NCBI GenBank assembly: GCA_038851565.1
Contig: JAWCKV010000019.1
Coordinates: 1 to 17,361, forward strand
DNA length: 17,361 bases
From: Candidatus Hadarchaeales archaeon
GTDB lineage: Archaea > Hadarchaeota > Hadarchaeia > Hadarchaeales > Hadarchaeaceae
Reading direction: 5' to 3'
Under the pieces are notes generated by a model that saw only the letters and a program-made list of their open reading frames with translations, was not told where the DNA came from and searched no databases. Of this stretch, positions 2 through 15,908 are shown one piece after another; positions within the stretch are counted from its first letter, which is position 1, and each line of letters begins with the position of its first letter. The translations under genes and the position numbers were made by a program.

Positions 2-3000
2 AAGGTGCCGAACCTCCACACCGCCCCAAGCTCCATCGGACAGTACTACCTGATCCTGGACCTGATGGGGTCCAGCGAGAACGGGATAACCACGCCCACG
101 TACGGCCTGCAGATGTTCTACTATGTCAAGACTCTCTCACTCGAACTCCGCGCCACCGACTACGTGGTCAACCCCGGACAGCAGAACGTGGTCGCGTACG
201 GCACGGTCAGACTTGTTCCGGATGGAACTCCAGTGGCGGGAGAAAACGTGGAGATATCGTTTGCCGGCGAAAACTACACTGTCACAACAGCGGACAACGG
301 TTACTACTCATGCGTTCTGAACATACCACACAGAACTGGAGTTGAGAACCTGAGGGCGAAGATGGTCGACTCGAGGGGGCTGGAGATGGAGAACTGCGTG
401 ACGATAACGATAGGATCGATAGACATATCCTTCATCCCGGAGACTGAGATCGCTGGAGAGGGTCAGCCGTTCAAAATGTACGGCACAGCGCTGCGCAGGC
501 CCGAGAACACACCTGTCCAGAACACCGAGGTGAAGTTCTACATCGAAAACTCGTATGTCAAGAGCGTTTACACGGGATCGAACGGCGCATATGAGATAGT
601 GCACACCTTCCCAACGCGCGGGCTGTACGGACTCAGGATCGTGATCGTGGACTCAGACGGCATAGTTGGCGAAAACACGATGGACATCATAGTGGGCAGA
701 CCGCTGCGCATATGGGACAACGTGGGCATAAAGGACGTCTCCGGCGTGCCAATACCTGCCACCATGACCTTTTACGAACCCGGCACGTCAAACATCGCAT
801 TCCAAATCAGCACATATGAAAACGGAGCATACGACAGGTGGGGCTTCGCGGGCTACTTCGACCTCGAGATCACCTTCCCGAACCAGTCCGTGACCCTGAA
901 GTACGAGAACCTGAACCTCGACGGATTCAGCGCCTGGGACCAGATATACAGGTTCATAGAGGCCGACACGCCGCCGGCAGCGTACGTCTCCGTGCCTGGA
1001 ACCAGGGGCACCCTCAGGGGCATCGCGGTTCGCCCGCACCAGGTGTTCACCGAGAACTACAACAGGCTGGTCATCACCTTCAACTACAGCAGCTACATCC
1101 AGCAGGTGGGGGACATATGGTTCCTCAGGGTTTACAGGAGCAAGGGATACCAGCTTGAGAACCGTCTCGTTGAAGGGGGCTGGAAGGAGCTCGGCGGGAC
1201 GCTCAACGTCGCAAACTACACGATAACCGCGATAGACAACGAGGACCCGCCTGCTGTGGCCTATGTCGTGGCGGAGTATGATCCGCTATCGGCCGTCCTC
1301 CTCACCTTCGAGAACGCAGTTTCGACTATACAGGAAACCGCGGGCTTCCTCGGAGAGATGTCGCAGCATCTGATGGAGAACGCGCTCCTGCTCGCGGGGG
1401 TGGTTGAGAACCTGAAACAGACCGTGGGCAACCTCGCGACCCAAGAAAACATGGCGGCGCTTGCGGAAATACAGGGACAGATAGCGGACATACTTGAAAA
1501 CGTGTCCGGCATACTTAGCTACTTAGTCACGCTTGAAAACTCCTCCTTCGGGCTTACCGAGAACCTCTGGAGCGCTTTCATACAGCTGTCGCAGGTGCTG
1601 GAGAACGCATCAAGGAGCTCGCAAATAGAGGAGATAAGGGAGCAACTGTCGGAGGCGTTTGATCTGCTCCAGCAGCTCGCCCCCAGGGAGGCCCTATCCG
1701 TCGATCCATCGATCATCTGGCTGGAGATATACCAGGGCGAGACGACTGAGGTCTTCGTGAGGGTGACAAATACCTCCACATCAACGCTGAGCGTACACCC
1801 GGAGAAGGGCGTGAGGAACTGGCCAGAATCCCTGGAGCTCGACAGGTCCATCAGGATATCGTTCGAACCCTCCGTCCTCAGCCTCAAGTCGGCCGAGACC
1901 AAGACGCTTACGGTCACCGTGATCGCGGGAACCATGGTTCCTGCAGGCGTCTACTCCGGAGAGATAGTGATCAAGGACACCGGAGTTGAGAAGGCTGTGC
2001 CGGTGGCCATAAGGGTACGGCCGTGGGCGAGGGGACTGTTTGACCTGAGCGTTACATCCCTCGTGAAAACGAGCTATCCGGGAGGAAAGATACCGGTAGA
2101 GGTCCAGTTGAAGAACATGGGTATACAGGCGGCAGATGTAGAGGTGACGGTCTACCTCGAGAGCGTGAGCGGTACGGCGCTCGCCACCATCATGGGAGAA
2201 ACTGTGAAGGTGGACGTGAGCGAGACGAAGGTCCAGAGATACGAGATCGAGGTCCCGACCGACATTGAGGAGGGCCAGTATGTGGTGAAGGCGGTCGGAG
2301 TGTACAAGTGGAACGGGGACGAGGTGACCATCTCAGGCATCGACACCGTGAACATAGAGAAGTTCATAAAGGTCACGATCAGGGTGCTCGCCAGGGAGGT
2401 GGAGCCGGGAGGAAAGATACCTTTCGAGGCAGAGTTCAGAAACACCGGGACCGAGTGGACTGAGGTGGATATAACCTTCCAGCTCCTGACGCCTGCCGGG
2501 GAGCCATGCTGGTCAGAGTCCGTCAGGATATCCCTGGAACCCAACTCAACGGAGAGGAGGACATATGAGGCGGAGGCGCCAGCCGACACGGCAGGTGGAA
2601 CGTTCGTCCTCACAGCGTCAGGTGAATACATATGGCTGGAGAAGGCCATCTCAGTTACGGCCGCGGAGGCAGAGGTTCAGGTGAAGAGTCCGCCCTTCAC
2701 GTTCTTCGGGCTGTCCATCCCCTGGCTAATAATGACGATCATAAGCGCGGTGGCGGCGATAGTGGCCGGAAGATTCGGATACAGATACTACCAGAGGAGG
2801 AAGGCGGCCAGGCGCAGGTTCGAGGCGAGGCTCTTCATGGCGGAGCTCCCGAAGCCAAGCCCTGACGCCATCAGGATCGGGAGACTTGCTGAGGCCCCTG
2901 GGGAGGCCTACCTCGACATCAACGACCTCAGGATGCACGTCATGACAGCAGGCGCCACTGGAGGAGGAAAGACCATATCATCGATGGTGATAGCCGAGGA

Positions 3001-4399
3001 GGCCCTGCTGAAGGGAAAGAACGTCATAGTGTTCGACCCGACCGCCCAGTGGACAGGGTTCCTGAAGAAGTGCACATCCGAGAAGATGCTGTCGTACTAC
3101 AAGAACTTCGGGATGAAGGAGAGCGATGCCAGGGGATTCCCGGGTGTGGTCAAGCTCGTCACCAACCCCAGGCAGAAGATAGACATGAAGGAGCTCCTGG
3201 GCGAGGAGGCGAAGGGCAAGATAACCGTATTCGTGATCGAGAGGCTGAAGCCCGGGGACATGGACGTTTTCGTCACGAACGTCATACAGTCCATATTCGA
3301 GTCCCAGCCGATGGAGTATCCGGGGCTCAAGACCCTCCTGATATTCGACGAGGTTCACAGGCTGCTGCCGAGGTTCGGAGGAACCGGGGCCGGCGTCATC
3401 CAGCTGGAGCGCGCGGTCCGTGAGTTCAGGAAATGGGGAATAGGCGTGATGCTCGTCTCGCAGGTCATGGGCGACTTCGAGGAGGAGATAAGGTCTAACA
3501 TAAGGACGCAGGTGCAGTTCTGGACAAGGGAGAAGGAGGAGCTCGACAGGATATCCAGGACATACGGTGAAGAGCACATGCGCTCTGTCTCGAAGGCACC
3601 GGTCGGGTTCGGAATGCTCGTCAACCCGGACTACAACAGGGGCAGGCCCTACTACATAAACTTCAGGCCTATCCTCCATGAGGTCCAGAGGCTTGACCCC
3701 AGGCAGCTCGACAGGTACTATGCTGCCGACGAGAGGATAGAAACGGTCAAGTACAAGCTCAGGAAGCTGGAGGAGAAGGGCGTTGATGTCTTCGACCTGC
3801 GCATCGAGCTCGGGCTGGCGATGCGCAAGCTCGAGGAGGCCTCGTTCGACATGGTGGACGCCTACCTCGAATCGCTCGAGCCGAGGGTTGAAAGCGTGTG
3901 CGCCCAGCACAAGCTGGCCGGACTCAAGCGCGAGATTGAGCTGAGGTCCGAGAAGGAGATAAAGGAGACCCAGCTCGCCGCCCTGAGGGAGCGCGAGCGC
4001 AGGCTTGGAATGGCAGCCAAGCGTCCGCCGGAGATCGTTGAGGCATATAAAGAGCTCCTCGCCCGGGCCACCCCCGTGGCAACCAAGGAAACGGGAAAGC
4101 CCCTGCAGGAGGAGGTGCACCCGATGGCTGAGAGGGGGCCGCCCAGGAGCGAGGAGGAGATAGAGGAGCAGATGGAGGAGATAGAGAAGCCCGAGGAGAA
4201 GAAGGCCAAGGAAAAGCCCAGGAAGGAGGAGAAAAAGGCAGAAGCTACAGAAGAGAAGGCGGGAGGGGAGGAGAAAGCTGAGGAAAAAACAGCGGAAGAA
4301 TTGAAAACCAAAAAAACTTTGAAGGGAAAAAAGGAGAAGGATGAGGCCAAGTCACCGGCTCCAAAGAAAAACAACGGCGGGCAAAAGAAGAAAAGATAG
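2..4399 (+). CDS. Large membrane-anchored surface protein (Ig-like repeats, helical stalk, TM helix) fused to a C-terminal HerA/FtsK/VirB4-superfamily (DUF87-like) P-loop ATPase; 5'-truncated
   Basis: The frame is open from base 2, so GTG 5 is probably not the true start. The N-terminal region is beta-rich with repeats. A helical segment spans about 1283-1678. The TM helix GLSIPWLIMTIISAVAAIVAG (2708-2770) is followed by RRKAARRR. ATPase motifs: Walker A GATGGGKT (2951-2974), VIVFDPT, Walker B LLIFDEVH (3335-3358) and REFRKWGIGVMLVSQ (Arg-finger/Gln motif of the HerA/FtsK superfamily). The tail is Lys/Glu-rich. Confidence 0.9.
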   Translation, partial: KVPNLHTAPSSIGQYYLILDLMGSSENGITTPTYGLQMFYYVKTLSLELRATDYVVNPGQQNVVAYGTVRLVPDGTPVAGENVEISFAGENYTVTTADNGYYSCVLNIPHRTGVENLRAKMVDSRGLEMENCVTITIGSIDISFIPETEIAGEGQPFKMYGTALRRPENTPVQNTEVKFYIENSYVKSVYTGSNGAYEIVHTFPTRGLYGLRIVIVDSDGIVGENTMDIIVGRPLRIWDNVGIKDVSGVPIPATMTFYEPGTSNIAFQISTYENGAYDRWGFAGYFDLEITFPNQSVTLKYENLNLDGFSAWDQIYRFIEADTPPAAYVSVPGTRGTLRGIAVRPHQVFTENYNRLVITFNYSSYIQQVGDIWFLRVYRSKGYQLENRLVEGGWKELGGTLNVANYTITAIDNEDPPAVAYVVAEYDPLSAVLLTFENAVSTIQETAGFLGEMSQHLMENALLLAGVVENLKQTVGNLATQENMAALAEIQGQIADILENVSGILSYLVTLENSSFGLTENLWSAFIQLSQVLENASRSSQIEEIREQLSEAFDLLQQLAPREALSVDPSIIWLEIYQGETTEVFVRVTNTSTSTLSVHPEKGVRNWPESLELDRSIRISFEPSVLSLKSAETKTLTVTVIAGTMVPAGVYSGEIVIKDTGVEKAVPVAIRVRPWARGLFDLSVTSLVKTSYPGGKIPVEVQLKNMGIQAADVEVTVYLESVSGTALATIMGETVKVDVSETKVQRYEIEVPTDIEEGQYVVKAVGVYKWNGDEVTISGIDTVNIEKFIKVTIRVLAREVEPGGKIPFEAEFRNTGTEWTEVDITFQLLTPAGEPCWSESVRISLEPNSTERRTYEAEAPADTAGGTFVLTASGEYIWLEKAISVTAAEAEVQVKSPPFTFFGLSIPWLIMTIISAVAAIVAGRFGYRYYQRRKAARRRFEARLFMAELPKPSPDAIRIGRLAEAPGEAYLDINDLRMHVMTAGATGGGKTISSMVIAEEALLKGKNVIVFDPTAQWTGFLKKCTSEKMLSYYKNFGMKESDARGFPGVVKLVTNPRQKIDMKELLGEEAKGKITVFVIERLKPGDMDVFVTNVIQSIFESQPMEYPGLKTLLIFDEVHRLLPRFGGTGAGVIQLERAVREFRKWGIGVMLVSQVMGDFEEEIRSNIRTQVQFWTREKEELDRISRTYGEEHMRSVSKAPVGFGMLVNPDYNRGRPYYINFRPILHEVQRLDPRQLDRYYAADERIETVKYKLRKLEEKGVDVFDLRIELGLAMRKLEEASFDMVDAYLESLEPRVESVCAQHKLAGLKREIELRSEKEIKETQLAALRERERRLGMAAKRPPEIVEAYKELLARATPVATKETGKPLQEEVHPMAERGPPRSEEEIEEQMEEIEKPEEKKAKEKPRKEEKKAEATEEKAGGEEKAEEKTAEELKTKKTLKGKKEKDEAKSPAPKKNNGGQKKKR
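197..700 (+). repeat. Two tandem ~94-aa Ig-like domain repeats within the large protein
   Basis: YGTVRLVPDGTPV...TADNGYY...VDSRGLEMENCVTITIG aligns with YGTALRRPENTPV...TGSNGAY...VDSDGIVGENTMDIIVG. The YGT codons start at 197 and 479, 282 nt apart. Confidence 0.7.
2040..2690 (+). repeat. Two tandem ~109-aa membrane-proximal Ig-like (CARDB-like) domain repeats
   Basis: PGGKIPVEVQLKNMG...PTDIEEGQYVVKAVGVYKW aligns with PGGKIPFEAEFRNTG...PADTAGGTFVLTASGEYIW. An identical 17-mer ccgggaggaaagatacc occurs at 2078-2094 and 2405-2421. Confidence 0.75.
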
Positions 4400-4408
4400 A
4401 GATCTCCA

Positions 4409-4415
4409 TTTATAT
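4409..4415 (+). promoter_or_regulatory. Putative TATA box for the 4444 gene
   Basis: TTTATAT lies about 28 nt upstream of ATG 4444 in a GC-rich context. Confidence 0.45.
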
Positions 4416-4443
4416 CCGGGGGGAAAAGCAAGAGGGGGGACCC

Positions 4444-5232
4444 ATGAAAACTGCTCTCAAGGTGGCGATTCTCTGTGCGCTAGCCGTGGCCGTTTTCTCC
4501 GTGATCTACCTCTCCCTGCGGACGTATTTTGAGCTTGAGGGCTATGAGTTCGTGGGAGATGGAGACTGCGTGCTCCGTCTTAACTACTCCACAAACCGCC
4601 CGGCGGTTGCCAGGCTGACAACCGCTGAGAACCTGCTGGTGAGCGAAACCGAGCTTTCACCGGGCGAAAGCCGTGCCGATCTCAAAGTCGCCGAAAACCG
4701 CGAAACCCCGGGAAGCGCTCTGGTACTGACGATAGAGCAGGGGGGGAGGACCATCCTCACGGGAAGCTTCCCGCCTCCATCCCTCCAGATATCCCTGACC
4801 AGCGTGGTGGAGTGGGGCTGGGATCCCGCAGCTGGGCAGAGCACGATCCAGGCTGTGGCGATCCGGATAGCCAACAGCGGGGGGCTGCCGGCCTATGTGC
4901 ACAGGATCACAGGACTTCTGGACGGAAGACTGGTGGGGGGTTCCTCCACCGAGTGGAGCCCGGCGGGCGAGGGACCCGTGGATATGTGGATAATGCCTGG
5001 AGCCGAGGAAAACCCGACCGTGAGGTGGAGCGGACCCACAATTTCGCCCGGCTACCATGGGTTCAAGGTAACCGCTGAAGGCATAGGTGGAGAGGAGCTG
5101 GCCAGCATGGCGTTTCCATCCATCATCAACGTGCCGAGCGAATACCTGCACGGCACAAATGAGGCTGAGAACTGGGAAGGAAGCGTGAACGCGCCGGCCG
5201 GGTGGCACAGGCCGGAATCATGGCGCATGTAG
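4444..5232 (+). CDS. Hypothetical membrane-anchored or exported beta-rich protein
   Basis: The N-terminus MKTALKVAILCALAVAVFSVIYLSL is a signal/anchor. It contains an Ig-like motif IRIANSGGLPAYV. A G-rich RBS-like sequence precedes the ATG. Confidence 0.75.
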   Translation: MKTALKVAILCALAVAVFSVIYLSLRTYFELEGYEFVGDGDCVLRLNYSTNRPAVARLTTAENLLVSETELSPGESRADLKVAENRETPGSALVLTIEQGGRTILTGSFPPPSLQISLTSVVEWGWDPAAGQSTIQAVAIRIANSGGLPAYVHRITGLLDGRLVGGSSTEWSPAGEGPVDMWIMPGAEENPTVRWSGPTISPGYHGFKVTAEGIGGEELASMAFPSIINVPSEYLHGTNEAENWEGSVNAPAGWHRPESWRM

Positions 5233-5242
5233 CTCCTGTCCT

Positions 5243-6052
5243 TCACCTGGTTTCCCGAACGTGGTCGAATACCTTCTCGGCCAGTCCCACGAACTCCTTT
5301 GAGGCCTTTGACCTGGGCCTGTACCTCACCACCGGGATGCCCGCCGCCGTGGCCTCCTGGACCACCCTGCTCTCCGGGATCTGCGCGACTATCGGCCAGC
5401 CCAGCGCCCTCTTCACCTCGGTGATCGAAAGCTCGAACGGATACCCCGCGACCCTGTTGACCACCACCCCGAATACGGGAACCTTGTACTTCTCCGCTGC
5501 CCGGAATGTCTTGAGCGTGCTGGCTATCGTCGGGACGTAGGGATTCGTGACTATCATCATCTCATCACAGGCCTTAAGCGCCACGATAACCTCCTTTCCT
5601 ATCCCGGGTGCGGTGTCGACAAGTATTATCTTAAATCTCCTCTTGAGCGGCTCTATGAGCTCCGCGAGGTCCGTGACGTAGACCTCATCCTCAAAAGCTA
5701 TGGACCCAAAGATCGCGTTTACCCCCTGGCTCTCCATTATCGCGTCCTCAAGCGGCTCCCCCCTTGTGACCGCATCATGGATCGTTACCTCCGGCGTGAG
5801 TTCGCCGAAATGAAGGCAGAGGTTTGGGGCGCCCAGGTTGGCATCGATCAGAAGCACCTTTTCCGCACCCCAGATCTCAGCAAGGGAGACACCCGTGTTC
5901 ACAACGGTAGTGGTCTTCCCCACGCCTCCCTTACATGAAAAAACCCCTATTACCCTCGCCTCCCTCCTGTCTATGTGCGGAACGCGCGCTCTCTTGCCCC
6001 TCAGCAGCGCCCTGAGCCCGGACCCTGTGGATCTCCTCACACGTCGCGGCAT
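5243..6052 (-). CDS. MinD/ParA-family ATPase (MinD-like)
   Basis: Deviant Walker A KGGVGKTT, plus LLIDANLGAPNL, ILVDTAPG and GVVVNRV. The start is uncertain (6118, 6079 or 6052). 6052 was chosen because a TATTATAA box lies about 27 nt upstream of it. Confidence 0.9.
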   Translation of the reverse strand: MPRRVRRSTGSGLRALLRGKRARVPHIDRREARVIGVFSCKGGVGKTTTVVNTGVSLAEIWGAEKVLLIDANLGAPNLCLHFGELTPEVTIHDAVTRGEPLEDAIMESQGVNAIFGSIAFEDEVYVTDLAELIEPLKRRFKIILVDTAPGIGKEVIVALKACDEMMIVTNPYVPTIASTLKTFRAAEKYKVPVFGVVVNRVAGYPFELSITEVKRALGWPIVAQIPESRVVQEATAAGIPVVRYRPRSKASKEFVGLAEKVFDHVRETR

Positions 6053-6079
6053 GTGCCCATGAAATATTCTGCTTACCAT

Positions 6080-6087
6080 TATAATAT
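6080..6087 (-). promoter_or_regulatory. Putative TATA box for the MinD-like gene
   Basis: TATTATAA on the minus strand, downstream of the coiled-coil gene stop and about 27 nt before ATG 6052. Confidence 0.4.
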
Positions 6088-6104
6088 TGGTGGGGGAAGG
6101 ACGC

Positions 6105-7055
6105 TCATATGAGGGCATCGAGCAGCTTCGATATGCCCGTCTCCACGACCTTTATCTCCCTCTCTATCCTGGCGAACCTCTTCTGATTCTTCTCATCGGC
6201 CTCCTTGAGCACCTCAACGAGCTCGCGCATCTTTGAGAACTCCGAGGGATCGACCCCGGACTTCAGCCTCTCGCCGAGCTGGGTGGAAACGAACTTATCA
6301 AAGTCGGCCTTTGGGAGGGCCTGCTTCAGGGTGGCATCCATCTGGCTGAGCGTCTTCGAGATCGTCTTCAGGTTCTCCTCGACCACCCCAAGCCTGACGG
6401 TCATGTCGGTTACCTCCCTCAGCCTCCTCTGGAACTCCATGAACGCGCTCATCACCTTGTCGGACATCAGCTCTACCTGGTCCCTGAGCTGCTGTATCCT
6501 CATTATGTTCTTCCTCGCTTCGTCAGCCATGCCAACAACCGTTTCAAACCCCTTGAACTTGGCCATCGTATCCCTGTATCCAGCGATCTCCTTTCTCAGC
6601 TCCTTTATCTCGTCCTCGATGAGGGAGAACTTCGCCTTCAGCCCCTCTATGTCCTTATCCCTCCTCATTATCATGGACCTGAACTCCTCGGGCTTTATGC
6701 CCTCGAGCGCCCCGAGCGCCCTCTCCGCCTTGGCCTTTGCGTCCGCGCTGTCCTTCGCCTGGCTGAGTATCATCGTCCTGAGTTCCCCTATCTTCTCGTT
6801 GAGCATGGAAAGGCGGGCCTCCGTGGGCTCCCTCAGGGCCATGAGGGCCGTGACGCTCGCCTCCAGCTGATCGACCTTCATCTTAAGGGGGGCATCGGAC
6901 TTCACAACTTCTCTCTCTGCAAAACCCTCAATGATGCCTTCAACTTTGCTCTTCGCGGTTTCATTCTCAACGGACTTAACAGCCCCCTTCACCTTAGAGC
7001 CGCCTGCCGCCTTGGACTCCTTGACTTCAGGGCCCTTTTTTTTCAGTATGGGCAT
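6105..7055 (-). CDS. Long coiled-coil cytoplasmic protein, function unknown
   Basis: 316 aa, rich in E/K/R/L/M with heptad-like periodicity and no TM segment. It has a Lys-rich low-complexity N-terminus and lies directly upstream of the MinD-like gene. Confidence 0.8.
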   Translation of the reverse strand: MPILKKKGPEVKESKAAGGSKVKGAVKSVENETAKSKVEGIIEGFAEREVVKSDAPLKMKVDQLEASVTALMALREPTEARLSMLNEKIGELRTMILSQAKDSADAKAKAERALGALEGIKPEEFRSMIMRRDKDIEGLKAKFSLIEDEIKELRKEIAGYRDTMAKFKGFETVVGMADEARKNIMRIQQLRDQVELMSDKVMSAFMEFQRRLREVTDMTVRLGVVEENLKTISKTLSQMDATLKQALPKADFDKFVSTQLGERLKSGVDPSEFSKMRELVEVLKEADEKNQKRFARIEREIKVVETGISKLLDALI

Positions 7056-7123
7056 CTGGTTATCTATCTTTCCTCCGAAGTTTTATCCTTGTCGTTGAAC
7101 GGTGAGGAACCCTGGCGTGGCCT

Positions 7124-7140
7124 AAAAAAGATGTTAATAT
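7124..7140 (+). promoter_or_regulatory. Putative BRE/TATA for the S26 peptidase operon
   Basis: An A-run followed by TTAATAT (7134-7140), about 21 nt before ATG 7162, in the divergent intergenic gap. Confidence 0.4.
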
Positions 7141-7161
7141 GTGTGGAGAGATATCAAAGTG

Positions 7162-7635
7162 ATGGACCGAGAGATGTTCGCGGTATGCCTGCTTGGCGCG
7201 CTTCTGGTCGGGGCCTGGATAACCCACACGGGCACCCCAAGCGGGGAAAACTTCGAATGCGAAAACCTGGTGAACATCACCCAGATCTTTCAGGGGCACA
7301 GGGCATACGTGGAGAACTCCGTCGGGCTGGCCAGAACGTCCGGGACGAGCATGGAACCTGCCATGAAGAGCGGGGACACCGTGCTCCACGTCGGCGTTCC
7401 ATTCGGGGACCTGAAGGCGGGGGACATCATAATCTACCGGCACACCGTCACGGTCGGGGAGAACAGGGGGCAGACATTCGTGGTGATACACAGGATAATC
7501 AACGTGCTGGAGGACGGGGTGTTCACGAAGGGGGACAACCTCCCGAGCCCTGACGCGTACAAGGTCCATCCAGAGGAGATAATCGGCCTCATCAGGGGGG
7601 TGGTGTTCACCTCTTCAGAGGCATGGGGGAGGTGA
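7162..7635 (+). CDS. Signal peptidase I-like protein (S26, Ser-His, Sec11/SipW type)
   Basis: N-terminal TM helix; SGTSMEP (Ser at 7348-7350), GDTVL, GDIIIY, VIHRII (His at 7489-7491), TKGDN and IIG. An alternative GTG start is at 7141. Confidence 0.88.
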   Translation: MDREMFAVCLLGALLVGAWITHTGTPSGENFECENLVNITQIFQGHRAYVENSVGLARTSGTSMEPAMKSGDTVLHVGVPFGDLKAGDIIIYRHTVTVGENRGQTFVVIHRIINVLEDGVFTKGDNLPSPDAYKVHPEEIIGLIRGVVFTSSEAWGR

Positions 7636-7639
7636 GAGG

Positions 7640-8071
7640 CTGAAAACTGATCGAAAAAACCTTAAGAGGACCGCTGTGCTCCTCCTCCTGTTCCTCAACA
7701 TCCTGAGCTGGACATGGGTGATCTCGGGGAGGATTCATCATGTACCCCTGCGTGACCTCTCCGAACACCTCGACAACCGCAGATTGCTGGTCAGCGAAGA
7801 TATAGATATCATGACGGCCGGAAGCTGGGACATGGGAAAAACAATTAGTGAAGGCGATATTGTGCTCTGGAAGAGGGTCGATGTGAAAAGGGTGGGCGTG
7901 GGGGACGCCGTCCTGTTCAGGAACAGCGACAACTCGCTCACCGCTGGAAGGGTGATCTCAATAGAAAACGGAAACTATGGAATAAAGGGGGACTCCCTTG
8001 GAAGCCGCACTTATTCCGTGGCACCCGCGGATATCGTCGGCGTGATCGTGGGAGTCCTGTACAGGAGATGA
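7640..8071 (+). CDS. S26 signal-peptidase paralogue lacking catalytic Ser/His (probable pseudo-peptidase)
   Basis: Retains GDIVLW, GDAVLF, RVI, KGD and IVG boxes, but has WDMGK in place of TSMEP and AGRV in place of IHRI. The start is inferred at CTG 7640 after GGAGGTGA; the ORF track uses GTG 7676. Confidence 0.8.
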   Translation: MKTDRKNLKRTAVLLLLFLNILSWTWVISGRIHHVPLRDLSEHLDNRRLLVSEDIDIMTAGSWDMGKTISEGDIVLWKRVDVKRVGVGDAVLFRNSDNSLTAGRVISIENGNYGIKGDSLGSRTYSVAPADIVGVIVGVLYRR

Positions 8072-8074
8072 GCC

Positions 8075-8740
8075 ATGGCCACACCGCCTGAGGAGGTCCA
8101 GATAGGCAAGAGGGAGAGGCTGAAGTTATTCGTCAAAAAGAGATGGAGGCACCTGATGTTCATCGGGGCATGCATCGCAGTTGCCGTTTTCCTCATCTGG
8201 CTCATGCTCAGGCCGCCCGAGCCGCAACCCGCCTGGGTCTCCGGACCCATATTCAACGCGCCGAGCGAGAACGGGCTTATCGCGGCGATCGGGGAGAACA
8301 CGGGGATAGAGAACATATATATAGGGAGGTGGGGGGCCTACGGTCCGGCATACAACCCCAGGGAGGACATGGGAAAGCAGGGCGGGGCTATCGAGGCCGT
8401 CATAAGCGAGAGCGGGCAGTGCGTGAGGGTGGAGGCCGGTCGCAGGTTCGACATAGTGGTGGCCGTGAGGGTGAAGACCCCTGAGATAGCGTACGTGGCG
8501 AGGGAGAACATGTGGGTGAGCGTGGTGGCAACGAGCGATGGATTCACAATAGGTCCGGAGAACTCCACCGACCGGAAGGAGTACGTATTTGAGCAGTCGG
8601 GCTACGGGACCACACAGGGATACATGCGCGTGAACGTGGTTTGGGACAACAGCGGAAACGGGTACAAACTCATGCCCCATGAAAACCTGCGCATAACGTG
8701 GCTCGTACTTTCCACGTGGAAGTATCCTGGGCTGCCCTGA
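8075..8740 (+). CDS. Membrane-anchored exported protein, paralogue of 8824-9636
   Basis: Basic N-terminus, TM helix LMFIGACIAVAVFLIWLML and a Pro-rich linker, then a beta-rich domain with colinear blocks shared with the 8824-9636 product. It starts 3 nt after the upstream stop. Confidence 0.82.
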   Translation: MATPPEEVQIGKRERLKLFVKKRWRHLMFIGACIAVAVFLIWLMLRPPEPQPAWVSGPIFNAPSENGLIAAIGENTGIENIYIGRWGAYGPAYNPREDMGKQGGAIEAVISESGQCVRVEAGRRFDIVVAVRVKTPEIAYVARENMWVSVVATSDGFTIGPENSTDRKEYVFEQSGYGTTQGYMRVNVVWDNSGNGYKLMPHENLRITWLVLSTWKYPGLP

Positions 8741-8783
8741 AAACAACATGGGGACCGCTGATCCAAGCGCTTTCATCAATGAC

Positions 8784-8811
8784 AAAAAATAGAAAATAAA
8801 AAATAAAAAAA
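8784..8811 (-). terminator. Oligo-T terminator for the 8824-9636 gene
   Basis: Four consecutive T-tracts on the minus strand starting about 12 nt after the stop codon (plus strand aaaaaatagaaaataaaaaataaaaaaa). Confidence 0.7.
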
Positions 8812-8823
8812 TGCGCTGCCGGA

Positions 8824-9636
8824 TCAGCTCCAGATGTACAGCGCTATGTTATCCAGGTTAAGGGTACCGCCGGCCGGAAGCACGAATCCCTGTCCGTTGT
8901 AGTTGAACACGCAGTTGACCCTCGCGTATCCAGTAGCATACGCTCCATTCGTTGTCCACGGCACGTTGTTATCAAAAGCGTACTCATATCCGGTGTTCTG
9001 CGTGTTTTCTGTTCCAGACAAGGCTCCGCTGTAGCTGAGATATCCATACATGTTGTCCTGGTTCACGTATGCCACGAGCTTCGCGGTCTGCTTGTTTCCT
9101 GTGTAGCTTGCGTCGGCCTCAACCCTGCAGGCCATGACTATGGTGAACGGATACTCGTACGGAATCGTTGCACTATCCCCGGTGCCGGTTATTACTGCGT
9201 CCGTGGCTCCGTTCAAGAGCTTGGTGGAGTTGTTCTCCATGGAGATGTGCACACCGAAGTTGGTTGAATTCGGCACGTCGTTGTCGCAGATGAGCACGTT
9301 TTCTATCCCGCTGTTCTCTGGCACGCCGCCTGTGAAACCGATTAGAAACTGTCCGTCTGCCGTCAGGAGCTGTCCGGAAATCAGGGAGACCGTTCCCTGC
9401 CCGGTGACCGCAGGCGGTAAGGATAGAGCCCATCCTGCGATCCCGGCGACGATCACTATCGCAACTGCCGCGGTAACCCATTTCCACTGCGCCATTCTTC
9501 TTTCCACCTCCATTTTTTTTATTGGTGCCCTCGCCAGGGGTCCGGGAATAAAATCAAGTCTCCCCTTGCAACGCGGGCATTCCTTCGGGTGTTGCACCCT
9601 CGGATTCCACTCATATCCACAGCGGGGGCACCTCAT
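8824..9636 (-). CDS. Exported beta-rich protein with an N-terminal C4 Zn-ribbon and a TM/signal segment; candidate structural surface subunit
   Basis: CPRC-x13-CPRC at the N-terminus; hydrophobic VTAAVAIVIVAGIAGWAL; N/G/T/Y-rich domain. A second in-frame ATG at 9495 has its own GGAGGTG RBS. Confidence 0.85.
   Translation of the reverse strand: MRCPRCGYEWNPRVQHPKECPRCKGRLDFIPGPLARAPIKKMEVERRMAQWKWVTAAVAIVIVAGIAGWALSLPPAVTGQGTVSLISGQLLTADGQFLIGFTGGVPENSGIENVLICDNDVPNSTNFGVHISMENNSTKLLNGATDAVITGTGDSATIPYEYPFTIVMACRVEADASYTGNKQTAKLVAYVNQDNMYGYLSYSGALSGTENTQNTGYEYAFDNNVPWTTNGAYATGYARVNCVFNYNGQGFVLPAGGTLNLDNIALYIWS
9504..9511 (-). promoter_or_regulatory. Internal Shine-Dalgarno sequence before in-frame ATG 9495
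   Basis: GGAGGTGG on the minus strand, preceded by an A-run and followed 8 nt later by ATG (MAQWKW...). Confidence 0.6.
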
Positions 9637-9661: not shown

Positions 9662-9680
9662 TATTTAAGGGTTGTTTTTT
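9662..9680 (-). promoter_or_regulatory. BRE/TATA promoter for the 9636 gene (likely leaderless transcript)
   Basis: Minus strand AAAAAACAACCC-TTAAATA, ending about 25 nt upstream of ATG 9636. Confidence 0.6.
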
Positions 9681-10034
9681 GCTACTATGATGATCTCCCT
9701 CCATCTCCTATGATAGTAATAGTTCGGGTTCTTTTGAAAATATTAAAAATCCCGGATAAAACCGATTACAACGCAGGTCCCGCCTTTACAGTTAATCCCC
9801 AATTTATCCCGTGTTTACCGCCAATTTCAGCGGTCCAGATTTACAAACCACAAACCGTGTTTTTTCTGGGATATATTATGATGATATGATAATATCGGGG
9901 CATCCCATCTTTGAAGGCAATTCGCACCTGTCGAAAGAGGCGGCAAAACGAACGTGCCCAAATTCATATATTTTTTTATGCCCAACGATGATACAATGAC
10001 CTCAGGCACCCGACACAAACCCTTCCAGCAATAC

Positions 10035-10071: not shown

Positions 10072-11322
10072 ATGCCGATGACAATAGCCGAAAAAATACT
10101 GGCGAGGGCCTCTGGAAAAGAGGTCTCTGCGGGGGAGATTGTGGAGGCCTACGTGGATTACTGCATGGCGCACGACCTCACCGCACCTCTTGCAATAGAG
10201 GTCCTCCACGAGATGGGCGTTGAGAGGGTCTGGGATCCTTCTAAGGTGGTCATCGTCCTTGACCACCAGGCCCCGCCTACGACAATAGACATGGCAAGGG
10301 ACCACGCCGCCCTGAGGAAGTTCGTTAAGGAGAACAAGATACCCCACTTCTACGACCACAAAGGAGTTTGCCATCAGATAATGCCGGAGGGTGGCTTCGC
10401 CCTCCCGGGAACGCTTGTGGTGGGGGCAGACTCACATACCTGCACATACGGGGCCCTAGGATGCTTCGCCACCGGTGTGGGTTCTACAGACATGGCGGCC
10501 GTATTCGCTACCGGAAGGCTTTGGTTCAGAGTACCGGAAAGCATGCTGATAAATCTGAGGGGGAAATTCAGGAGGCTGGTCTCGGCAAAGGACCTCATCC
10601 TGAAGATAATAGGGGATGTTGGCGCCGACGGGGCGACCTATATGTCCGTTGAGTTCACGGGAGAGGGGCTCAGAAACATAAGCGTTTCCGGAAGAATGAC
10701 CATTTGTAACATGGGCGTGGAGATGGGGGCCAAGGTTGCGATGGTTCCTCCCGATGAGCTCACAAGGGAATACTTATCCGGAAGGGCCTCCCGGCCATAT
10801 GTTGAGGTATTCAGCGACCCTGATGCGGAATACCGCGAGAGGCTGGAGTACGATCTAAATGAAATAGAGCCACAGGTGGCCTGCCCTCACAGGGTGGACA
10901 ACGTGAAACCCGTAAGGGAGGTACAGGACGTAGAGGTGGATCAGGCCTTCATAGGGAGCTGCACAAATGGGAGACTCGAGGACCTCGTCCAGGCGGCGGA
11001 AATAGTGAGGGGGAAGAAGGTGGCGAGAGGCGTGAGGTTCATAGTTTCGCCTGCATCAACCGAGACGATGCTGCAGGCGCTGCGGGAGGGAATCATCCAG
11101 ATGCTCGCGGAGGCCGGGGCAATAATAGTGCCGCCCTCGTGTGCGGCATGCATGGGCTGCCACGTTGGGGTAATAGGGCCAGGCGAGGTCTCCATATCCT
11201 CGTCGAACAGGAACTTCAAGGGCAGGCAGGGGAGTCCAGAGGCTGAGGTTTACCTCGCCTCACCGGCGACCGTCGCGGCCTCCGCTGTGACGGGAAGGAT
11301 AACCGATCCGAGGGACCTCTAA
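10072..11322 (+). CDS. leuC: 3-isopropylmalate dehydratase large subunit (archaeal LeuC/HacA family)
   Basis: MTIAEKILA, DH, GVCHQ, GADSHTCTYGA, FIGSCTNGR, CAACMG, SNRNFKGRQG and YLASP motifs; three [4Fe-4S] cysteines present. Confidence 0.93.
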   Translation: MPMTIAEKILARASGKEVSAGEIVEAYVDYCMAHDLTAPLAIEVLHEMGVERVWDPSKVVIVLDHQAPPTTIDMARDHAALRKFVKENKIPHFYDHKGVCHQIMPEGGFALPGTLVVGADSHTCTYGALGCFATGVGSTDMAAVFATGRLWFRVPESMLINLRGKFRRLVSAKDLILKIIGDVGADGATYMSVEFTGEGLRNISVSGRMTICNMGVEMGAKVAMVPPDELTREYLSGRASRPYVEVFSDPDAEYRERLEYDLNEIEPQVACPHRVDNVKPVREVQDVEVDQAFIGSCTNGRLEDLVQAAEIVRGKKVARGVRFIVSPASTETMLQALREGIIQMLAEAGAIIVPPSCAACMGCHVGVIGPGEVSISSSNRNFKGRQGSPEAEVYLASPATVAASAVTGRITDPRDL

Positions 11323-11813
11323 TGGCCAGGGCGTGGGTCTTTGGAGACGACATAAGCACGGACGACATAATAGCCGGAAGGTATCTGGTCAAGCACGATC
11401 CCAGGGAGCTGGGAGTCCACGCGATGGAGAACATAGATCCGGAGTTCTCGAAGAAAGTCAGGGACGGGGATGTGATAGTGGCTGGAAAGAACTTCGGGTG
11501 CGGCTCCAGCAGGGAGCAGGCCCCCATAACCCTCAAGGCCGCAGGGATCTCCGCGGTGGTCGCGGAATCGTTTGCCAGAATATTCTACAGGAACGCGATC
11601 AACCAGGGGCTTCCGGTGCTCGTGTGCAGGGGGATCGCGGGAGAATTCAAGAACGGCGACGAGGTCAGGGTGGACCTCAGGGGCGGAACCGTGGAGAACC
11701 TCACAACCGGGAAGAAGTTCACATTTGAGCCTTTTCCGGATTTCATGATGGAGATCCTCCGGGCGGGCGGACTGGTCCCGTACATGAGGAGGAAGGGCGC
11801 CCTGAGCCGCTGA
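11322..11813 (+). CDS. leuD: 3-isopropylmalate dehydratase small subunit
   Basis: GDDISTDDII, GKNFGCGSSREQAP and SFARIFYRNAIN motifs; TAATG overlap with leuC. The specificity loop YLVK resembles the IPM-isomerase type (YLVY) more than the homoaconitase type (YLRT). Confidence 0.92.
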   Translation: MARAWVFGDDISTDDIIAGRYLVKHDPRELGVHAMENIDPEFSKKVRDGDVIVAGKNFGCGSSREQAPITLKAAGISAVVAESFARIFYRNAINQGLPVLVCRGIAGEFKNGDEVRVDLRGGTVENLTTGKKFTFEPFPDFMMEILRAGGLVPYMRRKGALSR

Positions 11814-11867
11814 TGCCCCCCCAGGACCCCATAAATATAGCTGGTGCAGATAGTAGGTTGGGTCTGC

Positions 11868-12947
11868 ATGAGGGTCACGCTCATCCCGGGAGACGGCGTG
11901 GGGCCGGAGGTAATAGATGCGGCCAGGAGGTGCATTGAGGCCACAGGAGCCAGGATCGAGTGGGATGTTGTGGAGGCCGGTGCGGATGTCATGGAAAAAT
12001 ACGGCACCCCCCTCCCCGACCACGTCCTGGACTCCATAAGAAGGAACGGGGTGGCGCTGAAGGGTCCGATAACCACCCCAGTTGGCGAGGGATTCAGGAG
12101 CGTGAACGTGGCGATAAGGAAGGCCCTTGACCTCTATGCCTGCGTCCGTCCATGCAAGTGGTACAGGGGGGTCAGATCTCCCTACGAGGGGATAGACATC
12201 GTTGTAATCAGGGAGAACACGGAGGATCTATATGCGGGCGTGGAGTTCGCGGAAGGCGAGAGGGAGACCGAGGAGCTGATAAAATTCGTTTCAGAGAGGG
12301 GAAGGGGGAGGATAAGGGAGGGCTCAGGAATAAGCCTGAAGGCGATCTCGCGCTTTGGCTCCGAGAGAATAGTCAGGTTCGCATTCAGATATGCCAGGAA
12401 AAACGGAAGAAGGAAGGTGACCGCGGTTCACAAGGCCAACATAATGAAGCACTCCGACGGGCTGTTTCTTGAAGCCGCACGCAGGGTGGCGCAGGAGTTC
12501 CCGGACGTGGGGTTCGAGGACAGGATAGTGGACAACATGTGCATGCAGCTCGTTCAGAAGCCCCAGCTCTACGACGTGATAGTGGCCCCCAACCTTTACG
12601 GCGACATCCTCTCAGACCTCTGCGCGGGACTCGTGGGGGGACTTGGAGTGGCTCCGGGCGCCAACATCGGGGACGAGTTCGCCGTGTTCGAGCCCACGCA
12701 CGGCAGCGCGCCGAAGTACGCGGGCAAGAACAAGGTCAATCCCACGGCCGCCATCCTCTCAGGCGCGATGATGCTGAACCATGTGGGGGAAACCGAAAGG
12801 GCGAGGGCGCTCGAGAATGCGGTGGCAAATGTCATCGCAGACGGAAAATACGTGACCTATGACCTGAAGGAAAACCCGGACGACCCCTCCGCGGTTGGGA
12901 CCAGGGAAATGGCGGATGCAGTTATTAGATGTCTCAAGGAAATGTGA
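11868..12947 (+). CDS. Isocitrate/homoisocitrate dehydrogenase-family enzyme
   Basis: [21 protein letters not shown] (Ser/Asn typical of isocitrate-binding members), [24 protein letters not shown] and [12 protein letters not shown] 11868 is preferred over GTG 11844. Confidence 0.88.
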
Positions 12948-12986
12948 GAACATCAAAATCGGCGCGCCACAAAATCCATCATGCAC

Positions 12987-12997
12987 AAAACTTTAAG
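12987..12997 (+). promoter_or_regulatory. Putative BRE/TATA for the 13029 gene
   Basis: AAAACTTTAAG about 31 nt upstream of ATG 13029. Confidence 0.45.
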
Positions 12998-13028
12998 CCC
13001 ATCAGGGGGATAGGCGAACGGTAACTCC

Positions 13029-14162
<1,134 letters not shown>

Positions 14163-14765: not shown

Positions 14766-15908
14766 GTGTGCAGGAGCTGCGGTTACTCCGATCACAGGAT
14801 GTCGGAAAGGGCAGAGGGGGAGCTGGTGCCGGGGGAGTGCCCGAGATGCGGGAGGGGAATGGAAGTCGGATCGCCGGAGATGCCGCCGTGGCTGTCCGAC
14901 GTCCTTGACAAGATCTGCAGCGAGTTTGATGTCTTGGACTTCATCTCGAGGGAAAACGGAGTCGAGGCGGAGGTGCGCTCCGGCAACACCAAGAGGGCAT
15001 TTGGAAGGCTGGCCGAAAGGCTGAGGCCATCCGGATACGTACCCGTTATACGCGAAAGAAACGGCGCGCTGAGGCTGGTGGTGCTCAAGTACCCCAGACC
15101 GGGTCCGAGCAACCCAGCCGTAAATGTCCTGCTCCTCTCCCTCACGTGCATGAGCACGTTTCTCGCGGGATACTTCATGATATTCGGCTCAATCGGCGAC
15201 GCCGCGCTCTTCTCTGCCTCCCTCCTGGCGATGCTGGGGATACACGAGCTCGGCCACAAGCTCGCCGCGAGGAGGAACCGAGTCGAATCCACGCTCCCCT
15301 ACTTCATACCCGCCCCCAACCTCCTCGGCACAATGGGGGCGATAATAAGCGTGAGGAGCCCGATCCCCAACAGGGAGTCCCTGATAGAGATGGGAGTCGC
15401 GGGTCCCCTCGCGGGCTTTGCGGCCGCGGTCCCCGTGATGGCAATGGGGCTCTGGATATCCGCGCCTGATCCTCAGGGCACCTCATTTGTCTTCGTTCCG
15501 GTGATATTCGCCCTCGGAGAGCTCCTGGTGTTCGGACACTTGCCCCCCTCTCTCAGGCTCAATCCCCTGATATTCTCCTCATGGGTGATGTTCCTCCTGA
15601 CCATGCTGAACCTCGTTCCGGCCGGACAGCTTGACGGCGGACACGTGGCGAGGGGGCTCATGAAGAGGGAAACCCATTACTCCCTGACAATGGGCATGGG
15701 GCTCGGGCTCTTAGTCTCCGGGATGCTGTGGCCCGAGATGCCGTTCTGGTTCTGGGGGCTGCTGATCCTCCTCTTCTTCAGGACCTATCACCCGGGGGCG
15801 CTCGACGACATATCCGGAGTCTCAAGGAAGCACGTGCTGCTCGGGCTGGTCGCCATGGCTGTTTTTGCGCTGTGCCTCCCGCTGCCAGCCGGATCCCCAC
15901 AAGCCTAA
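14766..15908 (+). CDS. Site-2 (M50) intramembrane metalloprotease with N-terminal Zn-ribbon
   Basis: HELGH, AGPLAG and NLVPAGQLDGGH motifs; multiple TM helices; N-terminal CRSC...CPRC. The start may lie a few codons further upstream. Confidence 0.9.
   Translation: MCRSCGYSDHRMSERAEGELVPGECPRCGRGMEVGSPEMPPWLSDVLDKICSEFDVLDFISRENGVEAEVRSGNTKRAFGRLAERLRPSGYVPVIRERNGALRLVVLKYPRPGPSNPAVNVLLLSLTCMSTFLAGYFMIFGSIGDAALFSASLLAMLGIHELGHKLAARRNRVESTLPYFIPAPNLLGTMGAIISVRSPIPNRESLIEMGVAGPLAGFAAAVPVMAMGLWISAPDPQGTSFVFVPVIFALGELLVFGHLPPSLRLNPLIFSSWVMFLLTMLNLVPAGQLDGGHVARGLMKRETHYSLTMGMGLGLLVSGMLWPEMPFWFWGLLILLFFRTYHPGALDDISGVSRKHVLLGLVAMAVFALCLPLPAGSPQA

Follow-up and report, generated by a model that had tools for sequence, protein, structure and literature searches.

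The window analysed here (17,361 nt; contig JAWCKV010000019.1, our C19, of genome G000) comes from a Hadarchaeota archaeon whose assembly comprises 823 kb and is 87% complete. Its positions 2 to 9636 hold a mosaic block of eight genes, g1 to g8, in which two modules meet. Module A consists of g1, which encodes a giant adhesin joined through a transmembrane (TM) helix to a HerA ATPase, and g4, which encodes a coiled coil. Module B consists of g8 and g7, members of an unclassified immunoglobulin (Ig)-like exported family, together with an active S26 signal peptidase (g5), a conserved dead S26 (g6) and, rarely, g2. Judged by its sequence, g1 belongs to the published SPEARE type and module A is known; module B is apparently undescribed. 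The genes and their main features are:

2..4399, + strand: g1, SPEARE-type giant cut at its 5' end by the contig start; the remaining 3' part encodes an Ig-like stalk, a single TM, a HerA/VirB4-like ATPase in the cytoplasm, a helical segment and a charged tail
2711..2779, + strand: single TM helix of g1, amino acids (aa) 904-922, from a hydropathy scan
2951..2974, + strand: g1 Walker A, GATGGGKT (G, T, G, G and K invariant in 30 aligned sequences)
3335..3358, + strand: g1 Walker B, LLIFDEVH (D, E and H invariant in 30 aligned sequences)
4444..5232, + strand: g2, beta protein with an N-terminal anchor and, at its C-terminal end, about 1.5 copies of a 16-aa W-repeat
5155..5229, + strand: W-repeat (WxxxExW type) at the g2 C-terminus, common with the giants
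5243..6118, - strand: g3, archaeal MinD-like ATPase whose Walker A is deviant, KGGVGKT (TIGR01969, 167 bits; cut-off 202)
6105..7055, - strand: g4, coiled-coil protein, conserved neighbour of SPEARE-type ATPases
7141..7635, + strand: g5, S26 signal peptidase, passing TIGR02228
7640..8071, + strand: g6, S26 pseudo-peptidase with W-D-M for x-S-M and Gly for His (TIGR02228, E 3.5e-5)
8075..8740, + strand: g7, second exported subunit, Ig-like beta sandwich without zinc ribbon, usually accompanying g6
8784..8812, - strand: T-rich tract between the convergent g7 and g8, by its sequence a likely terminator
8824..9636, - strand: g8, candidate main exported subunit (zinc ribbon, internal start, hydrophobic segment, Ig-like domain)
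9496..9636, - strand: in-frame N-terminal zinc ribbon CxxC...CxxC of g8, fused before the internal Met in 29/29 homologues
9505..9511, - strand: internal Shine-Dalgarno motif GGAGGTG before Met48 of g8
9662..9668, - strand: TATA box some 30 nt ahead of the ATG that opens the zinc ribbon (23/29 homologues, peak at -32 to -30)
9682..9722, no strand: conserved motif of ATCATAGTAGTAG type ahead of the g8 promoter (29/29 homologues), here in two inverted copies (9682-9694 and 9710-9722)

All eight open reading frames (ORFs) are real and lie where the first-pass annotation had placed them, and its description of the genes is largely borne out by TM segments, Walker motifs, S26 residues and the paralogy of g7 and g8. 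The right border is also as described, with GC content falling to 0.43 ahead of leuC. The beta protein g2 has an N-terminal anchor and no family match, g3 is MinD-like, scoring below the cut-off of the archaeal model, and g4 has matches solely of coiled-coil type. The S26 pair is intact in g5 (Ser70/His117) and degenerate in g6, where Asp and Gly stand at these sites. Three descriptions needed amendment. The architecture proposed for g1 stands, but the contig start cuts the gene. The exported proteins g7 and g8 are indeed paralogues, sharing 26% amino acid identity over 234 aa (E 2e-13), but the zinc ribbon before the internal start of g8 had been overlooked. For the degenerate S26 g6 the probable start is CTG 7640, preceded by a Shine-Dalgarno motif (the first GTG is at 7676). 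The gene order through leuC is identical in G047, from the same genus as the window, and in G059, from another family, module B immediately follows g1-g4.

The two modules differ in distribution. The survey covered 66 genomes of the phylum, of which 26 are near-complete. The ATPase search, with 15 matched at E ≤ 0.001, was restricted to E < 1e-100 (14 places in 12 genomes); the g7/g8 profile matched 47 genomes, from which 13 with the zinc ribbon or short pieces alone were dropped. Module A is present in 12 genomes and module B in 34, half of the phylum's genomes, with both in 10. The modules are adjacent at only 3 of the 14 Hadarchaeota ATPase loci, so one obligate eight-gene machine is unsupported. 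The first-pass annotation had inferred a single ATP-powered surface structure. The part that holds is the clustering of a dedicated S26, MinD and giant surface proteins across Hadarchaeota; the single powered machine does not, because the ATPase/coiled-coil pair and the subunit/peptidase kit are distributed differently. A single obligate machine for an appendage or for export, with the g1 ATPase driving assembly or export of g7/g8, would fit the gene order kept in G047, the position of module B in G059, the 10 of 12 ATPase genomes that carry module B and the W-repeat common to g1 orthologues and g2. However, module B occurs in the absence of the ATPase in 24 genomes, of which 12 are near-complete, and the reverse holds for two, among them G044 (95% complete). 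Moreover, no g7/g8 gene lies within the fetched flanks of the 76 listed ATPase loci from outside Hadarchaeota, and full-length g2 occurs in only 4 genomes, with weaker partial matches elsewhere. We consider such a machine improbable, and its obligate form is largely refuted. The W-repeat in g1 orthologues and g2 nevertheless ties module A to module B. The Hadarchaeota core would be module B with W-repeat giants and MinD, and the SPEARE ATPase with g4 an add-on joined to such a giant.

The ectodomain of g1 is beta-rich and its DUF87/HerA match exceeds the Pfam cut-off; ResIII gives a side match to the ATPase, whose solved relatives are HerA-type. Nine N-glycosylation sequons lie ahead of the TM and none behind it. 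The frame is open at the contig start, and the open frames of relatives reach 3,540 aa in G047, where Big_13 and Ig_Rha78A_N exceed their cut-offs, and 7,944 aa in G062. A hydrophobic leader starts the giants of G062 and G044 and a fragment on another contig of the window's genome (G000:C30:1-3747); the 5' end of the window's g1 is missing. This signal peptide-bearing fragment runs off its contig and has a MinD-like gene upstream, as in G062. It may be the missing start of g1 or the start of another giant: it shares 33% amino acid identity over 625 aa with the G062 ATPase giant and also matches ATPase-less giants.

The closest named homologues of g1 are Hadarchaeales proteins. With RLG14629.1, encoded at locus L168, g1 shares 33% amino acid identity over 784 aa (E 1e-123), and the gene that follows there encodes RLG14630.1, a homologue of g4 with a score of 121 bits against the g4 profile. 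Hamm 2019 names the SPEARE proteins, lists RLG14629.1 as a match, describes a laminin-G domain in the ectodomain and reports similar cytoplasmic parts in DPANN lineages and Altiarchaeales (PMC6642349). No laminin-G domain was found in the partial G047 orthologue of g1. The nanohaloarchaeal giants in La Cono 2023 have a signal peptide, tandem Ig domains, a TM, a VirB4/TraG-like ATPase and a coiled coil (PMC10266531). Homology to RLG14629.1 and this architecture assign g1 to the SPEARE type; the earlier statement that the island matched no known system is not supported.

The coiled-coil gene g4 occurs in exactly the 12 ATPase genomes and adjoins the ATPase at 13 of 14 places. A GTDB scan with the ATPase confirmed 564 of 613 stretches among the matches listed. 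At least 79 ATPase loci are listed, of which 3 are from Hadarchaeota and the remainder mostly labelled DPANN. A g4 homologue is found at 40 of these 79 (37 of the 76 non-Hadarchaeota loci), always downstream and on the same strand in 37. Among listed loci with room for g4, it is present at 33 of the 35 with a long ATPase and at 4 of the 26 with a short one. In a quick ATPase tree (94 rows, root unreliable), the 14 Hadarchaeota sequences separate from 78 others with a Shimodaira-Hasegawa-like approximate likelihood ratio test (SH-aLRT) value of 99, and Aenigmatarchaeota are nearest; with such a root, no direction of ATPase transfer between lineages is claimed. Eight loci titled 'uncultured Methanosarcinales' (L118, L123, L124, L128, L157, L161, L171 and L177) have ATPases that nest within Woesearchaeota rows. 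These are likely mislabelled bins, and the labels were not accepted as true hosts.

Module B usually has the order g8-S26 or g8-S26-g7-S26' on a single strand. An S26 gene is found within 2.5 kb of g8 in 28 of the 34 places where g8 occurs; of the other six, five lie at contig ends and in the sixth the distance is 2.54 kb. TIGR02228 matches in all 66 genomes and G000 has a further, housekeeping-type copy on C42; g5 is therefore an additional S26, in agreement with the dedicated peptidase of the first-pass annotation. The catalytic Ser is kept in 30/30 g5-class copies and in 0/13 g6-class copies (three truncated duplicates and one unparsed row excluded). Module B was not found in the literature searched, to which most subscription journals did not belong.

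The g7/g8 family comprises 173 representatives at E ≤ 0.001. The ectodomain of g7 is modelled as a confident beta sandwich, with a predicted local distance difference test (pLDDT) score of 94.5. Its best structural match (Z 5.2, root-mean-square deviation 3.0, 82 aligned) is a generic Ig/fibronectin type III (FnIII) fold. Foldseek against PDB and viral structures returned nothing at E ≤ 0.001, the g8 profile reached only E > 1 against PDB sequences, all matches of g8 in Atlas were below 0.9, and Pfam had no match in 48 distant family members. TasA, AbpA, CanA and thread subunits are not among the best 50 VIA-align rows, which leaves them possible. The homo-trimer prediction for the g7 ectodomain scored 0.00 and counts neither way. 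Distant g8 relatives of about 200 aa (P0233-P0290) on metagenome contigs have a TM, a W-containing strand, an AxA site and a C-terminal AYY; scans of viral and metagenome sets with P0272 found no locus.

The signals around g8 suggest that it yields a short structural form and a long zinc-ribbon-tagged form. Of 29 homologues, one has a Shine-Dalgarno motif ahead of the first ATG; ahead of the internal ATG the motif is present in 25 of 27, with a spacing of 9-10 nt in almost every case. Across homologues the internal motif sits in two reading frames (encoding E-V or G-G-x) and is therefore conserved at the nucleotide level. A TATA box about 30 nt before an ATG is the established archaeal promoter geometry for a leaderless start, and the TATA position of g8 therefore points to a leaderless zinc-ribbon start. 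The ribbon was not found in g7 or in distant g8 relatives, and in G060 (L067:1300-1500) a CcdA-type RHH domain replaces it. Contigs from RNA run X7 cover g8 (8857-9475), with no listed piece on g5-g7; such contigs cannot rank genes.

The ATCATAGTAGTAG-type motif is triplet-periodic. In 20 of 29 homologues (L039-L068) it is found again some 230 nt further downstream, among the codons for the hydrophobic segment. This second copy is not present in the window's own g8. GTA makes up 50% of the Val codons in the g8 hydrophobic segment vs 16% in the mature part. The upstream motif is inverted in L053 and forms an inverted pair in the window. As a regulon mark of module A it was rejected: G000 has 4 matches of at least 14 bits, one at g8 and none at g1-g5. 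A winged helix-turn-helix family recurs beside module B and giants (L178:7534-8202, L191:7379-8026, L036:6481-7248) and is a candidate binder of the upstream motif.

Module B is associated with giants that carry a 16-aa W-repeat (WxxxExWTGTV type), whose spacing is 16 in 140 cases. Pfam gave the repeat no name in the three proteins scanned. Among 115 database matches, 21 have a named organism and 19 of these are Hadarchaeota. The repeat is found in 34 of 66 genomes, of which 29 also have module B; each occurs alone in 5 and 27 have neither. In the near-complete genomes, 18 have both, 8 neither and none is discordant, and the co-occurrence is also seen inside three genera (genus labels g2, g9 and g12). 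A W-repeat giant lies within 5 kb of module B in 12 of 22 fetched loci, and MinD in 10 of 22. These giants are mostly without ATPase and often end in a PGF-pre-PGF domain, a TM and a basic tail. The g1 orthologues of G047, G062, G058 and G031 have 11, 20, 27 and 4 repeats, respectively; five partial giants and the complete ATPase giant of G044, which lacks module B, have none. No ORF with three or more W-repeats was found in the 76 listed non-Hadarchaeota ATPase loci. Homologues of g2 lie in module B of G043, between the two peptidases. MinD is found within 10 kb of module B at 14 of 34 places, counting rows down to E 8e-59. Five genomes (G031, G026, G030, G057 and G058) have five or six MinD paralogues each (E ≤ 1e-30), several tail to tail with a giant surface gene.

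Several known systems resemble parts of this island. With SPEARE proteins (PMC6642349; PMC10266531), g1 shares the Ig-repeat ectodomain, single TM, cytoplasmic HerA/VirB4-like ATPase and helical tail. Unlike them, it is hosted by Hadarchaeota beside leucine biosynthesis genes, its type of ectodomain bears W-repeats and it is linked to module B and MinD. The second VirB4 ATPase (PF03135) of the nanohaloarchaeal SPEARE locus and type IV secretion (La Cono 2023) was found in 0 of 5 genomes, 3 of them near-complete. The searches run found no literature pairing Hadarchaeota with SPEARE, though additional hosts may appear in Table S3 and Fig. S17 of PMC6642349. Module B resembles Bacillus tapA-sipW-tasA in that exported beta-sandwich subunits are encoded next to a dedicated S26. 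However, the SipW-type signal peptide (TIGR04088) is found in 0 of 38 g7/g8 family members, a model that fires on 2 of 3 G049 proteins, and a profile comparison with a SipW-type protein of G049 gives a match of 1.2%. G049 belongs to a family without module B and has a SipW-type cluster (L197:1073-5761), in which TIGR04088 signal-peptide proteins are followed by two S26 peptidases. The pseudo-peptidase, the zinc-ribbon dual start and the W-repeat giants further distinguish module B from both TasA/SipW and the Pyrobaculum bundling-pilus (AbpA) operon, which is reported to have no dedicated peptidase (PMC9245690). Streptococcus pyogenes SipA has an S26 fold with Asp/Gly replacing the catalytic dyad and is required for pilus polymerisation (PMC4049620). 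By analogy only, g6 is SipA-like, with Asp/Gly at equivalent sites. SipA serves sortase-linked pili, whereas g6 and the adjacent g5 are paralogues and the window has no annotated sortase. As in archaeal MinD positioning (bioRxiv 10.1101/2020.04.03.021790), a MinD-family ATPase lies next to surface-structure genes, but here it faces W-repeat giants and module B, not archaellum or chemotaxis genes. The locus has no type IV pilus ATPase, as the first-pass annotation had noted: no PF00437 assembly ATPase or pilin is among the eight genes, these being located on C41, C3 and C46 of G000. For Ced DNA import, the CedD-class ATPase score is 33.8 bits against a cut-off of 600, and no multi-TM protein is among the eight genes (the genome was not searched for CedA).

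We give about an even chance to a reading in which module B builds a peptidase-matured fibrous coat on giant W-repeat proteins, while the ATPase pumps DNA or another polymer at cell contacts. In this model g5 would cleave g8 behind its hydrophobic segment, and g6 would keep g7 uncut as a SipA-like chaperone or anchor. The g7/g8 subunits might polymerise on or along W-repeat tracts, with g2 as a one-repeat anchor and MinD positioning the structure. The g1 ATPase, with g4 as the cytoplasmic partner of its ring, would move the polymer, and the long zinc-ribbon form of g8 could feed back on expression. What is observed is the gene content, how the two modules are distributed, the catalytic residues, the common W-repeat and the conserved dual-start signals of g8; filament formation, cleavage and binding are predicted, which weighs against the model. 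So do several findings. The window's g1 fragment has no W-repeat and none was found in G000 at its 87% completeness. The co-occurrence of module B and the W-repeat is inflated by physical linkage and kinship, and the association of modules A and B is not significant in near-complete genomes (p 0.37). The folds of g7 and g8 have no good match (best Z 5.2 and 5.0), and the family lacks the SipW-type signal peptide. The first strand of g7/g8 was tried as a W-repeat and rejected as a general rule; only few members are alike (63 of 120 above their own shuffles), so a donor-strand link is not general.

Other readings of the coat-and-motor evidence are less probable. Modules A and B could be functionally unrelated and merely gathered in a surface-gene island, with g8 as an S-layer-like or membrane-anchored coat protein and the giants as independent adhesins. 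The rarity of A beside B, the scrambled orientations in the window, the tens of kb between the modules in G062 and the lack of a fibre-protein fold match all suit this view. We regard it as rather unlikely, given the zero discordance between module B and the W-repeat in near-complete genomes and the repeat shared by g1 orthologues and g2, whose homologues sit between two peptidases in G043; by analogy with SipW and SipA, a dedicated peptidase with a pseudo-peptidase also suits regulated assembly better than a plain anchor. Alternatively, g8 could mainly be a membrane-tethered regulator whose Ig-like sensor faces outwards and whose DNA-binding domain, a zinc ribbon or RHH, lies inside and is freed by g5 cleavage. 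The in-frame ribbon of all 29 homologues examined, the RHH replacement in G060 and the echo of the upstream motif in signal-segment codons speak for it. Yet the strong Shine-Dalgarno motif stands at the internal start and hardly ever at the ribbon start, so most product should be ribbon-free, and g7 and distant relatives lack the ribbon; a mainly regulatory g8 is thus hard to credit. A bolder form of the coat-and-motor reading is a Hadarchaeota-specific filament system. Here W-repeat tracts would be docking strands for g8/g7 matured by the active/dead S26 pair, the zinc-ribbon-tagged form would report processing to the promoter, and some lineages would have fused the scaffold to a SPEARE ATPase. 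We hold this specific form to be doubtful.

Beyond the island, the window continues with leuC, leuD and two isocitrate/isopropylmalate dehydrogenase paralogues (10072-14162), named from translations and synteny. An M50 peptidase with an N-terminal CxxC domain is encoded at 14766-15908; none was found beside module B in other loci.

One half of the island represents a known, unsolved family in a new host; the other is a widespread kit that was absent from the literature searched. SPEARE proteins are leading candidates for the engagement of DPANN symbionts with their hosts, and their function is unsolved. The presence of SPEARE proteins, with several diverged paralogues, in Hadarchaeota that keep amino-acid biosynthesis suggests that this phylum shows cell-contact behaviour or that the motor has a more general role, and g4 emerges as a conserved partner of the SPEARE ATPase. 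Module B adds a candidate archaeal surface polymer that by the tests run is neither a type IV pilus nor TasA, and brings a subunit family and a repeat that are both unclassified, a dead peptidase resembling SipA and a gene with an unusual dual start. If the filament-system reading is true, a non-DPANN archaeon would have the contact motor of the symbionts, which could be tested in a culturable host.

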